Part shown: piece after piece, positions 6,589 through 46,144 of the stretch
Layout of the letters: every line of letters starts with the position of its first letter
How positions within the stretch are numbered: the first letter of the stretch is position 1
Assembly: GCF_964355755.1 (NCBI RefSeq)
Contig: NC_092677.1
Span: forward strand, 18,002,101 to 18,066,100
Length of the DNA: 64,000 nucleotides
Direction: 5' to 3'
Source: Antedon mediterranea
Taxonomy: Eukaryota > Animalia > Echinodermata
Made by a program: the position numbers and the translations under genes
The notes under the pieces: generated by a model
Told to the model about the DNA's origin: nothing
The model's database searches: none
The model's input: the letters and a program-made list of their open reading frames with translations, nothing else

Positions 6589-6786
6589 ATGGAAATACCA
6601 AGAAGGAATTTGATACTGTTGCTGTCAATGGTACTTGTAGTTGCTCATAGTCAAGACATGCGAACAAATATTATTGACGTATACGGAGACTCGTTTAAAA
6701 GTGGTATTTCTATCGATATAACAGAGAGGATTAGGTACAGTTGGACAATGTATCTTATATTTGACGAACCTGTTTTTAAATTACAG
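6589..6786 (+). CDS. Cellulase coding exon 1: signal peptide and N-half of CBM2-like module 1
   Basis: [23 protein letters not shown] hydrophobic leader, then [16 protein letters not shown]; donor CAG|GTAAGT, phase 0. Confidence 0.82.
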
Positions 6787-45700: not shown

Positions 45701-46144
45701 ATGTTTATAGTTTCAAATTAATTAATCGACATTCACTGTGTGGTTTAGAACTTCTTCCTGCCTGTAAATATTTATTTCCAACATAGTTATGGTCTAGAAA
45801 AGACTTAATCTGTAATGGTTGCAAGGTTATTTATTTATTAGAAATACAGTTATTGTAGACATCTAGTTAGAGAATAACAATGAAATGATCATTTCTTGTT
45901 CCCAATCCTTTTGTTGCAAAATAAAATCACTGGATCATGTGATTTATAAATAAGCAAGTTCCACCAATAAACACTTTAAATTGAAATGGCAACAATACCG
46001 ATAGTCTGAAATAAATTTTTTTTTCAAACGCTAACGTACTATAAGTTTAAATACCATAGGCCTTAGAAGCATGACTAATATAATACGAATTCACCATTTT
46101 TTTCAGGCATTATCAAGTTATTGATTGATGAGAGTAACGACTAA
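6589..46144 (+). CDS. Giant secreted GH9 endo-beta-1,4-glucanase (cellulase), 17 coding exons, 3,792 aa: signal peptide, 7 CBM2-like modules, Thr/acidic repeats, C-terminal GH9 domain
   Basis: join(6589..6786,13131..13793,14029..14403,17634..17925,20414..26706,26935..27309,27468..28469,28698..29072,29239..29722,30100..30261,30542..30726,31533..31692,40417..40528,43928..44235,45137..45302,45446..45636,46107..46144). Every intron is GT..AG with matching phases; total 11,379 nt, no internal stop. GH9 motifs: [55 protein letters not shown]. Confidence 0.88.
7565..7605. mobile_element. 41-bp palindrome with 7-bp TSD (P-element-like footprint)
   Basis: 18-bp perfect arms CAGGGAAGAGTTAAATTA; flanks GTGAAAC / GTTAAAC. 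Confidence 0.65.
8200..8475. repeat. About 3 tandem copies of a ~100-bp AT-rich unit
   Basis: ATCTTATGACTTTTTCACATAAATACACTTATT..GGTATCATTAAATA occurs three times. Confidence 0.85.
8712..9010. repeat. Dispersed DNA-element fragment; related copies at ~42631-42800 and a stub at ~31970-31990
   Basis: Shared TTAAAGAT(G/A)TATTGT(C/T)CC start and TTTGTAGTTTTAA.AAAGTT(T)AATCACTT block. The TTAA start suggests Kolobok-like, unverified. Confidence 0.5.
11389..11863 (+). mobile_element. Non-autonomous Helentron-type element (HINE/DINE-like)
   Basis: 5' TTACCCCCACCAAGGAGGTTAT followed by a (GT)n microsatellite; 3' sub-TIR GGCGGAGGT, short hairpin and CTAGTT end. Confidence 0.72.
11880..12660 (-). mobile_element. 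Gypsy/Ty3 LTR-retrotransposon integrase fragment
   Basis: [38 protein letters not shown], then KERYD..YQVGDSV..KL; frameshifted. Confidence 0.85.
13131..13793 (+). CDS. Cellulase coding exon 2: C-half of CBM 1, Thr/Pro linker, N-half of CBM 2
   Basis: TAG|ATTTGG gives [14 protein letters not shown]..; ends EPVDTLD|GTAAGA, phase 0. Confidence 0.88.
14029..14403 (+). CDS. Cellulase coding exon 3: C-half of CBM 2, N-half of CBM 3
   Basis: TAG|GTATAC, VYQAVV..NENYNG..LGFQA..SEWQGNF..GGWT; donor ACG|GTAGGT. Confidence 0.88.
14535..17610 (+). mobile_element. Degraded CR1/L2-group LINE (endonuclease + RT) in a cellulase intron
   Basis: [66 protein letters not shown]-rich tail ending just before the exon 4 acceptor. 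Confidence 0.9.
17634..17925 (+). CDS. Cellulase coding exon 4: C-half of CBM 3 and linker
   Basis: CAG|GTGTAC, VYNAEV..QGFQA; phase-1 donor T|GTAAGC at 17926. Confidence 0.85.
18108..18463 (-). mobile_element. tRNA-derived SINE with MetaSINE-like core
   Basis: A box TGGCCGAGCGG, B box GGTTCGAGGCC, core GTCTTCTCGGATAAGGACTATAAACCGTAGGTCC..AAAGAACCC..AAAGAGTAGGGG, (AAAAT)n tail. Confidence 0.75.
18650..19745. repeat. Intronic 90-bp tandem repeat with a higher-order 311-bp period
   Basis: ACTTTAT(C/G)TGAGTGTCTTTGCTTGG.. every 90 nt from 19191; identical spurious ORFs at 18704 and 19015 are 311 nt apart. Confidence 0.92.
20414..26706 (+). CDS. Cellulase coding exon 5 (6,293 nt): giant Thr/Asp/Glu tandem repeat and N-half of CBM 4
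   Basis: Phase-1 acceptor TTCTTACCAG|AT; uninterrupted ORF of over 2,080 codons; ends EPVNNLD|GTAAGA. Confidence 0.88.
20460..26500 (+). repeat. Coding minisatellite: about 42 higher-order units built from 21-nt subunits
   Basis: Unit [26 protein letters not shown](DTTEDLV)n; 21-mer GATACAACTGAAGATCTAGTT; periods of 120, 141 and 162 nt. Confidence 0.97.
26935..27309 (+). CDS. Cellulase coding exon 6: C-half of CBM 4, N-half of CBM 5
   Basis: 375-nt paralog of exon 3; TAG|GTATAC ... ACG|GTAAGT. Confidence 0.88.
27468..28469 (+). CDS. Cellulase coding exon 7: C-half of CBM 5, linker, short repeat array, N-half of CBM 6
   Basis: TAG|TTGTAC ... GAT|GTAAGA, phase 0/0. Confidence 0.87.
28698..29072 (+). 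CDS. Cellulase coding exon 8: C-half of CBM 6, N-half of CBM 7
   Basis: Third 375-nt paralogous exon with the same splice sites as exon 6. Confidence 0.88.
29239..29722 (+). CDS. Cellulase coding exon 9: C-half of CBM 7 and Pro/Thr linker
   Basis: TAG|TTGTAC ... AAT G|GTGAGA, phase 1. Confidence 0.86.
30100..30261 (+). CDS. Cellulase coding exon 10: GH9 domain start
   Basis: [36 protein letters not shown]| acceptor and G|GTAAGC donor. Confidence 0.95.
30542..30726 (+). CDS. Cellulase coding exon 11: GH9 (AGDYVKF)
   Basis: Not in the ORF track; read manually as [43 protein letters not shown]. Confidence 0.95.
31533..31692 (+). CDS. Cellulase coding exon 12: GH9
   Basis: [32 protein letters not shown]. 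Confidence 0.95.
34040..34560 (+). pseudogene. Transposon protein C-terminal remnant (Academ-type)
   Basis: [36 protein letters not shown], frameshift, then [19 protein letters not shown] and an acidic tail. Confidence 0.6.
35275..37110 (-). mobile_element. 5'-truncated CR1-like LINE inserted in the right foldback arm
   Basis: [41 protein letters not shown]; (TTA)n tail; TSD AGTTATA at 35268-74 and 37111-17. Confidence 0.92.
36211..36239. mobile_element. 29-bp palindrome with perfect 7-bp TSD, interrupting the LINE RT
   Basis: ATAGGAC-CAGGGAAGAGTTAAATTAACTCTTCCCTG-ATAGGAC; same terminal sequence as 7565-7605. Confidence 0.75.
39067..40142. mobile_element. MITE, probably Harbinger-type
   Basis: TGTTCAGACCCATGGCGTTAGACCGTTTTAGCGTAC versus GTACGCTAAAACGGTCTAACGCCATGGGTCTGAACA; outermost bases diverged, TSD unclear. 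Confidence 0.7.
40417..40528 (+). CDS. Cellulase coding exon 13: GH9
   Basis: Read manually as [37 protein letters not shown]; phases 1/2 fit both neighbours. Confidence 0.93.
43411..43630 (-). mobile_element. tRNA-derived SINE with CORE/Deu-like motif and (CAAA)n tail
   Basis: A box TGGTGTAATGG, B box GGTTCGAGG, CCTTAGGCAAGATGCTTTAC motif, tail at 43411-43430. Confidence 0.7.
43634..43749 (-). pseudogene. 5S rRNA-derived sequence (pseudogene or SINE head)
   Basis: GGCCATACTGCGTTGAAACACCGGTTCTCGTCAGATCACCGAAGTTAAGCAACGTTGGGCCCGG..GGATGGGAGAC matches metazoan 5S rRNA; the 3' third is diverged. Confidence 0.85.
43928..44235 (+). CDS. Cellulase coding exon 14: GH9
   Basis: [41 protein letters not shown]. 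Confidence 0.95.
44337..44795. mobile_element. MITE with ~40-bp TIRs and internal subrepeats
   Basis: CTGTTGAGCCGTGAAATGTGCAAAAAGTCACATTT and its reverse complement at 44751-44786. Confidence 0.7.
45137..45302 (+). CDS. Cellulase coding exon 15: GH9
   Basis: Read manually as [41 protein letters not shown]. Confidence 0.95.
45446..45636 (+). CDS. Cellulase coding exon 16: GH9 catalytic acid region
   Basis: [44 protein letters not shown]. Confidence 0.95.
46107..46144 (+). CDS. Cellulase terminal coding exon 17
   Basis: TTTTTTTCAG|GC gives [12 protein letters not shown] then TAA at 46142-46144. Confidence 0.8.

Follow-up and report, generated by a model that had tools for sequence, protein, structure and literature searches.

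The glycoside hydrolase family 9 (GH9) cellulases of abalone (HdEG66) and of the clam Corbicula carry a single N-terminal carbohydrate-binding module (CBM) of family 2 (CBM2). In passages of PMC11083476 these enzymes are the CBM-bearing exceptions, few in number, among many animal GH9s that have no CBM, and animal GH9s are described as consisting, as a rule, of the catalytic domain only and as holding poorly to solid cellulose. Excerpts of PMC4123733 give a size of 45-63 kDa for molluscan GH9 and GH10 enzymes and list a sea-urchin GH9. Here we describe a gene of the comatulid crinoid (feather star) Antedon mediterranea, found in a stretch of 64,000 nucleotides (contig NC_092677.1, positions 18,002,101 to 18,066,100; hereafter the window, to which all coordinates refer). 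The gene lies on the forward strand at 6589-46144 and is predicted to encode one chain of 3,792 amino acids (419 kDa), in which seven CBM2-fold modules and a spacer of 2,094 amino acids precede a single GH9 domain. We read the product as a predicted avidity-tethered multivalent endoglucanase that would be kept on food particles by many weak contacts, and we give this reading a probability of about 0.48.

We rebuilt the gene from the window sequence, using GT donors, AG acceptors, phase matching and frame joining. All 17 exons have GT-AG borders and compatible phases, and the joined coding sequence (11,379 nt) has a single stop, which is its last codon. The chain runs in the order signal peptide, first module (M1), linker 1, module pair A1/B1, giant spacer, A2/B2, spacer 2, A3/B3, linker and GH9. 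Exon 1 (6589-6786) encodes a signal-peptide-like N-terminus (residues 1 to ~21) and the first half of M1. Exon 2 (13131-13793) has the second half of M1, the Thr-rich heptad linker 1 and the first half of A1; exon 3 (14029-14403) has the second half of A1, a Cys/Pro hinge and the first half of B1; and exon 4 (17634-17925) has the second half of B1 and a short linker, ending in a phase-1 donor that fits either exon 5 or exon 10. The giant spacer, built of 21-nt heptad repeats (for example DTTEDLV), is encoded by exon 5 (20414-26706; 6,293 nt), which then continues into the first half of A2. The second half of A2 and the first half of B2 are in exon 6 (26935-27309). Exon 7 (27468-28469) holds the second half of B2, spacer 2 (~230 amino acids, of the giant-spacer repeat type) and the first half of A3, exon 8 (28698-29072) the second half of A3 and the first half of B3, and exon 9 (29239-29722) the second half of B3 and a Thr/Pro linker to GH9, with a phase-1 donor. 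GH9 is encoded from exon 10 onward, and exon 17 (46107-46144) supplies the C-terminus and stop, the same end as in the RefSeq protein XP_071959064.1. There are AATAAA signals downstream of it at 46351 and 46535, and no extra module or GH9 exons beyond the 17 were found within the window. The N-terminal hydrophobic core reaches 3.24 (Kyte-Doolittle, 9-mer), and a membrane anchor was rejected, the best 19-mer hydropathy past the signal peptide being 1.23. We infer from these two features that the chain would be secreted.

Exons 10 to 16 tile the Pfam Glyco_hydro_9 profile (PF00759) in order from position 1 to 441 of 444. Exon 10 (30100-30261; profile 1-55) contains the GH9 start and the catalytic D3406, and exon 11 (30542-30726; 57-117) the second catalytic Asp, D3409. 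These are followed by exon 12 (31533-31692; 119-169), with DHAYWGRPE, exon 13 (40417-40528; 173-209), exon 14 (43928-44235; 212-331), exon 15 (45137-45302; 334-387), with PHHG instead of the common PHHR, and exon 16 (45446-45636; 389-441), with the catalytic acid E3766 in NEV, before DYNA. The joined domain, scored in its RefSeq copy, gave 501.5 bits, above the curated cut-off. D3406 and D3409 are the Asp pair of DAGD; the roles of this pair and of the NEV Glu in GH9 are given in passages of PMC11083476 and PMC3795549. Among solved structures, the nearest to this domain are animal GH9s that consist of the catalytic domain only (phmmer E 6e-171 for 3wc3). In an alignment to 3wc3, all ten active-site and cleft residues listed for the earthworm enzyme EF-EG2 in excerpts of PMC3795549 (D74, D77, H144, Y226, W270, W320, R324, H378, Y427 and E431) are kept. 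The domain would be expected to have endo-beta-1,4-glucanase activity.

A profile built from modules of the window and of relatives located seven modules, at residues 23-127, 245-347, 369-471, 2565-2667, 2689-2791, 3024-3126 and 3148-3250, in a 1+2+2+2 grouping (M1, A1/B1, A2/B2, A3/B3). Within residues 2548-3792, Pfam CBM_2 matched in four stretches with 104 bits. When exons were scanned singly, exons 2, 3, 6 and 8 passed the CBM_2 cut-off (E 1e-5, 2e-6 and 4e-7 for the first three), exons 4 and 7 fell below it, and exons 1, 5 and 9 gave no match. In the structure predicted for the A2/B2 pair (pLDDT 80, pTM 0.49), a hinge of low confidence connects two beta-sandwiches. In a structural comparison of this pair against 48,161 chains, the best match was 6bt9 (Bacillus ChiA74; Z 11.3, rmsd 1.8, 90 residues aligned), and matches also included 3ndy (Clostridium cellulovorans EngD; Z 11.2, rmsd 2.3, 103 aligned) and 1exg (Cellulomonas fimi Cex; Z 9.2, rmsd 2.5, 100 aligned); cohesins scored Z ~7, well below the ~11 of CBM2s. 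With the two-domain model, Foldseek returned many beta-sandwiches that are unrelated, and CBM2s had TM scores of 0.61-0.66 (by target). The module profile matches 1exg at E 2.5e-13, which fixes the residue register. The CBM2 assignment of M1 rests on sequence, the fold having been predicted for the A2/B2 pair only. A first-pass annotation of the window had proposed 17 phase-compatible exons in one frame from signal peptide to GH9, seven CBM2-like modules and intact DAGD and NEV residues, all of which we recovered. Its description of the product as a secreted-type multivalent CBM2-GH9 single chain with a long tether is supported as well.

The RefSeq model covers about one third of this chain. 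XP_071959064.1 (1,245 amino acids), which a search with exon 6 returned as a 100% match, is letter-for-letter residues 2548-3792 of our model and agrees with it from the last part of exon 5 through exon 17, including the joint 29722->30100. It lacks a signal peptide and starts at an inner Met at 26527, near the end of exon 5 and inside an open frame of 2,131 codons. We infer that masking of the 6-kb coding repeat caused the shortening.

Sequencing runs gave some information on splicing upstream of the RefSeq model. Run X1 is presumed to be RNA, although the kind of run is a guess, and runs X2 and X5 behave as DNA. A single X1 contig (depth 4.6) matches exon 4 over 198 letters (17633-17830) and continues in a loose end of 126 letters. 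The 30 letters available from this loose end are those with which exon 3 ends, from copy 1 of the module pairs specifically and unlike copies 2 and 3, and the last 31 bases of exon 3 are joined to exon 4. In X2 and in X5 there is one contig that goes straight through the introns in this region. The exon 3-4 joint is spliced as modelled, in this one contig. The contig ends at 17830 without a loose end, leaving 17831-17925 uncovered, and is neutral on the joint of exons 4 and 5. Of the sampled words of 28250-30730, a share of 0.41 was present in X1 and 0.77-0.80 in runs X2-X5. The share possible is 0.52 for the full mRNA, 0.35 if exon 3 is joined to exon 9 and 0.17 if exon 4 is joined to exon 10. 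Because 0.41 is above the shares allowed by either skip, the exons between seem to be transcribed, although this is only a hint. Exons 1-17 very probably belong to one gene, because the orthologue in another crinoid, Anneissia, runs from signal peptide to GH9 in one chain; a full 17-exon mRNA probably exists.

The Anneissia japonica (Comatulidae) protein, XP_033120141.1, has 1,538 amino acids in the order signal peptide, M1, A/B pair, heptad spacer, A/B pair, linker and GH9. It is 64% identical to the Antedon chain in M1 and 84% in GH9; its spacer differs in sequence from that of Antedon and has 360 amino acids in the RefSeq model. Proteins of Diadema (XP_071510732.1), Lytechinus (XP_054749385.1), Acanthaster, Holothuria and Ptychodera have a signal peptide, three modules, a linker and GH9 in 894-964 amino acids. 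The six echinoderm multi-module GH9 domains formed one clade (SH-aLRT 91) in a quick tree of 33 domains. Mercenaria and Mactra proteins have the one-module CBM2-GH9 layout of the abalone and clam enzymes, and a Gigantopelta GH9 has four modules.

We surveyed the best 120 of 1,839 GH9 proteins of 845-2,692 amino acids, 117 of which were new (from animals, plants and bacteria). There were no modules in 62 of these 117, one in 21, two in 21, three in 7 and four in 6; none had five or more. The longest gap outside crinoids among the matches listed was 665 amino acids, in an apparent fusion model. A phmmer search against 50% representatives (41 matches) gave no further long CBM2-GH9 beyond those named, and three many-stretch matches had no module by profile. 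Five and seven modules were present only in the two crinoids, among the proteins surveyed. Multi-CBM2 GH9s are widespread among predicted animal proteins, and the Antedon gene appears to be the extreme found of a shared echinoderm design. The rarity suggested in the first-pass annotation is therefore reduced by these three-, four- and five-module GH9s, and one of the findings that it named as refuting, a shared architecture in relatives, applies in part; the combination of seven modules with a 2,000-amino-acid spacer was not matched among the proteins surveyed. Antedon may not be alone in having seven modules, because a partial Anneissia protein (XP_033123723.1, on a 1,579-bp contig) has an A/B pair with a pair-2-like flank before it and a pair-1-like flank after it, a mosaic that would fit a third, middle pair. 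This protein could represent an allele, or a middle pair that was collapsed. No description of a multi-CBM2 echinoderm GH9, or of the Antedon gene itself, was found in the literature covered, which was largely open-access.

The searches also returned other arrangements of these domains. There were five proteins with two to five CBM2-like modules and no GH9, Asterias and Holothuria proteins among them. Several GH9-less proteins match both CBM_2 and GD_N (the N-terminus of the serine protease gd), which suggests that GD_N may be an animal CBM2-like module. Tandem-GH9 models, possibly fused, include Styela models with three to four GH9 domains and models of Macrobrachium, Pocillopora and Saccostrea with alternating module-GH9 units.

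The giant spacer consists of 42 higher-order units of 33-61 amino acids, each with a fixed 26-amino-acid core and one to five DTTE(D/A)LV heptads. Its composition is 29% Thr, 25% Asp+Glu, 28% LVIFY, 0% Ser and 0% Pro, with a net charge of -513. One frame of exon 5 is open over all 2,037 spacer codons in that exon, and the other five frames have 30-251 stops. Departures from the heptad grid are found in 3 of the 42 units (6, 6 and 3 nt, two of which may be one event), and all keep the frame. There were 63 distinct single-step variants, of which 17 were synonymous, 46 changed a residue and none was a stop (2.0 expected). The frame looks to have been kept while exact residues drift, because the length changes keep the frame and the variants are close to neutral proportions without stops. 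On a charge-hydropathy plot the spacer is on the disordered side (H 0.456, below the boundary of 0.502). A periodicity at lag 7 is common to linker 1, spacer 2, the Anneissia spacer and the first Anneissia linker, and was not evident in urchin, starfish or sea-cucumber linkers. AlphaFold2 on 13 aligned spacer repeat stretches gave no confident fold (pLDDT 34.5, pTM 0.35), and the best model, with one hairpin in each 47-amino-acid unit, was distrusted. A search of the ESM Atlas with the spacer gave no usable lead (best score 0.81, recognition 739). The spacer is likely a disordered acidic tether, O-glycosylated if its Thr content is a guide; with 0.25-0.35 nm assumed for each residue, its extended length would be 520-730 nm. 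All 38 Cys of the full chain are within modules, hinges or GH9.

The binding faces of the modules can be compared with those of bacterial CBM2s. According to excerpts of PMC5935602, W17, W54 and W72 form the cellulose-binding strip of CBM2a, a Gly at W17+3 orients W17, and an Arg at that position switches binding to xylan, as in CBM2b. At the three strip positions M1 has Y/W/W, A1-3 have W/Y/Y and B1-3 have W/Y/H; the buried Trp is kept in 7 of 7 modules, and no module has the CBM2b Arg. The Gly is present in 14 of 17 presumed bacterial modules and in 0 of 6 urchin modules, all six of which are W/W/W; two Acanthaster modules are W/Y/Y. The modules are CBM2 by fold and profile but belong clearly to neither CBM2a nor CBM2b, and the ones that multiplied are the degenerate ones.

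In the reading that we prefer, the avidity of the seven modules would hold the enzyme to a polysaccharide particle, for instance of plant or algal wall, and the GH9 domain would work on the long, likely disordered, O-glycosylated acidic tether. The faces of the duplicated modules would be weakened or shifted (W/Y/Y, W/Y/H), so that many weak grips would replace one strong grip. The enzyme would stay on food particles bearing cellulose, mixed glucan or chitin, in the food groove or gut, and shorter in-frame splice forms may accompany the full form. The suggestion of the first-pass annotation that the enzyme might trap or cross-link particles in feeding mucus is a conjecture.

Several observations weigh against this reading. 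None of the seven modules has the W17/W54/W72 trio, and none has the CBM2a Gly at W17+3 (Ser, His or Asn instead); because the duplicated modules lack both, predicted cellulose binding is uncertain. The Arg of PHHR acts at subsite +1 and is common in GH9 without being strictly defining. It is present in 104 of 131 PHHx motifs of the proteins compared, and the motif is PHHG in Antedon, Anneissia and Diadema; a literature search found nothing on the role of this Arg. The absence of stops among spacer variants is weak alone (P ~0.13), and the spacer codons change at neutral proportions (17 synonymous variants, 16.4 expected). The RefSeq model lacks exons 1-4 and the giant spacer, and the only RNA-type joint observed is that of exons 3 and 4, with the joint of exons 4 and 5 and the interior of exon 5 outside it. 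Within the repeat units of exon 5 (20524-26472) there are donor-like sites, CTG/GTAGGC (Leu-Val-Gly codons), that score 8.6 on a small home-made matrix on which real donors score 4.1-11.2. PMC3247070 reports that the yeast enzyme PpCel45A performed better on crystalline cellulose, in binding and in cutting, with one CBM than with five CBM1 modules.

In the preferred reading the gene would have grown by duplication of its module pairs. Copies 2 and 3 of the module pairs are 96-99% identical in exons and introns, and copy 1 is 85-96% identical to them; the introns of the repeat units are 94-97% identical between copies. A false duplication of pairs 2 and 3 in the assembly was set aside, because the copies are 2-4% divergent, with indels, and A3 is preceded by a stretch whose sequence is its own. 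The A modules group by species (96/93 and 96/88), the B modules less clearly. Because the A modules group by species and the introns are near-identical, the data point to a lineage-specific duplication or gene conversion of A/B pairs. The ancestor would have been an echinoderm gene of ~950 amino acids (signal peptide, M1, A, B, linker, GH9), extra pairs would have arisen by unequal crossing-over between 21-nt Thr-rich linker repeats, and the same process would have lengthened the spacer. 

Alternatively, with the gene still one long open reading frame, module number and spacer length might mostly be side effects of unequal crossing-over within a minisatellite of the linker, and the protein might work like a three-module echinoderm cellulase, perhaps after protease clipping of the spacer. 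This explanation would agree with the neutral proportions of spacer changes, the free variation in heptads per unit (33-61 amino acids), the very recent age of copies 2 and 3 indicated by their identity across introns, and the different sequence of the Anneissia spacer (360 amino acids in its RefSeq model). However, both crinoid families independently hold extra pairs and an acidic Thr spacer with lag-7 periodicity, the frame has been kept across 6.3 kb, and a 419-kDa chain is costly to make. We regard this explanation as unlikely, but as one to be taken seriously.

It is somewhat less likely that most mRNAs of the one gene skip the giant exon, the 3,792-amino-acid form being minor or absent. 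Exons 5-9 (20414-29722), together 8,529 nt, make up a phase 1-1 cassette, and several skips are in frame. Joining exon 4 to exon 10 would give a three-module enzyme of 949 amino acids, an ancestral size that fits the 894-964 amino acids of orthologues; 2->8 or 3->9 would give 1,013 amino acids; 2->6 or 3->7 would give a five-module, Anneissia-like enzyme of 1,472 amino acids; and 5->8 or 6->9 would give 3,333 amino acids. Because the duplicated introns are at homologous places, the frame is kept in each of these skips and complete modules are restored. The donor-like sites within exon 5, all in phase 0, with a variant CTG/GTAAGC at 23517 that scores 10.8 on the same matrix, are a caution for full inclusion of that exon, and the joint 17925->20414 is not among the RNA observed. 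On the other side, the phases leave a transcript that carries the observed 3->4 joint only two ways on, into exon 5 or into a GH9 exon, and in the RefSeq model exon 6 follows directly on the end of exon 5. The X1 word share, as a hint only, is above that of 4->10 alone or of 3->9 and below that of the full mRNA. Exon 5 also has a pyrimidine-rich acceptor (11/15) and a 6.3-kb open frame.

The six duplicated modules might instead bind another glycan, such as chitin, xylan or the animal's own mucus glycans, with the N-terminal 3,350 amino acids acting as a polyanionic mucin-like net that carries GH9 as cargo. We consider this improbable. W54 and W72 are replaced by Tyr or His in all six A/B modules, whereas urchin modules are W/W/W; position 20 is His or Asn; chitinase CBM2s are among the best fold matches; and the spacer has its charge of -513. 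However, every module keeps an aromatic residue at W17 and W54, W/Y/Y is also found in two Acanthaster modules of an enzyme of ordinary length, and Asn at position 20 is common among animal modules. Set against the Pro/Thr/Ser tandem-repeat domain of gel-forming mucins, the spacer has tandem repeats with 29% Thr, no Ser or Pro, 25% Asp+Glu and 28% LVIFY. Pfam scans of the exons and the RefSeq protein found none of the gel-forming domains VWD, C8 or cystine knot. A related, speculative combination, which we consider unlikely, is a crinoid mucin-enzyme hybrid up to ~0.5 micrometre long, derived from an ancestral three-module cellulase, in which low-affinity, possibly re-targeted CBM2 pairs on a polyanionic tether would net walled plankton, with a valency of 3, 5 or 7 set by in-frame skipping. 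If so, plankton with cellulose or chitin walls would be netted in feeding mucus with the cutter carried along.

Two separate genes, one for a secreted GH9-less three-module protein (exons 1-4, ending in the stop codon at 18164) and one downstream for the four-module cellulase of the RefSeq model, are very improbable: the RefSeq start at 26527, the open frame of exon 4 on to 18161 and the GH9-less multi-module proteins annotated in Asterias and Holothuria would allow them, but that start lacks a signal peptide and is inside a 2,131-codon open frame, every full orthologue runs from signal peptide to GH9 in a single chain, the donor at 17925 is strong, and no separate upstream Antedon protein of 220-2,000 amino acids was found when looked for.

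Other elements were noted in and around the gene. The frame of exon 4 reads 78 codons into intron 4 (17926-18161), with a hydrophobic stretch and no Pfam match, and retention of this intron would give a GH9-less three-module protein. Intron 4 also has a minisatellite (18652-19748) with 90-bp and 311-bp periods that are 97-98% alike. Broken LINE-like reverse-transcriptase pieces (RVT_1) are present upstream (4198-4788, - strand), in intron 3 (15836-16063, +), in intron 12 (36224-37156, -) and downstream (58851-59117, +). A region of intron 1 (12053-12776, -) resembles an LTR-retrotransposon integrase by eye, with no Pfam match at E 0.01. Downstream of the gene there are several copies of a dispersed element (48021-50862, 54527-55496) with similar frames at 48021, 49575, 50602 and 55245, and a 373-bp tandem pair at 54527.

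The locus and its orthologues place multi-CBM2 GH9s across the sampled crinoids, urchins, starfish and sea cucumber. They provide a natural series for tests of avidity and tethering, with three, five and seven modules, W/W/W and W/Y/H faces, and short and 2,000-amino-acid tethers, and they may help to decide whether crinoids, as suspension feeders, break down algal walls on their own. They also provide a case in which a coding tandem repeat probably cut a public gene model to one third.

Among known systems, scaffoldins are similar in being very long, modular, CBM-bearing secreted chains. Scaffoldins dock many enzymes through cohesins. No cohesin or dockerin family was found in the Pfam scans of the exons and RefSeq protein, and the Antedon chain has one covalent catalytic domain; the first-pass view of it as a one-chain analogue of a cellulosome scaffold is not supported. 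According to PMC3247070, the Pichia enzyme PpCel45A (GH45 with five CBM1 modules) is likewise a eukaryotic endoglucanase with tandem CBMs on glycosylated linkers, but it is short and of other GH and CBM families, and its five CBMs gave stability, not better crystalline binding. The bacterial CBM2a and CBM2b modules (1exg, 2xbd Xyn, 3ndy, 6bt9) share the fold and the buried Trp, whereas the Antedon modules lack the Trp trio, the 2a Gly and the 2b Arg.

The lone-domain GH9s 3wc3 (Eisenia fetida EF-EG2), 4zg8 and 1ks8 (426-462 amino acids) share the catalytic domain. In contrast to these, the Antedon GH9 has PHHG for PHHR and is preceded by seven modules and ~2,500 amino acids of linker. The abalone and clam GH9s are alike in having a signal peptide, an N-terminal CBM2-like module, a linker and a C-terminal GH9, but have one module and a linker of ~20 amino acids where Antedon has seven modules and a spacer of 2,094. 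The predicted GH9s of other echinoderms and of the hemichordate Ptychodera are likely orthologues and share the order of signal peptide, M1, A, B, Thr linker and GH9. They and the Anneissia protein, all uncharacterised predictions, differ from Antedon in having three or five modules and a longest spacer of 85-360 amino acids.

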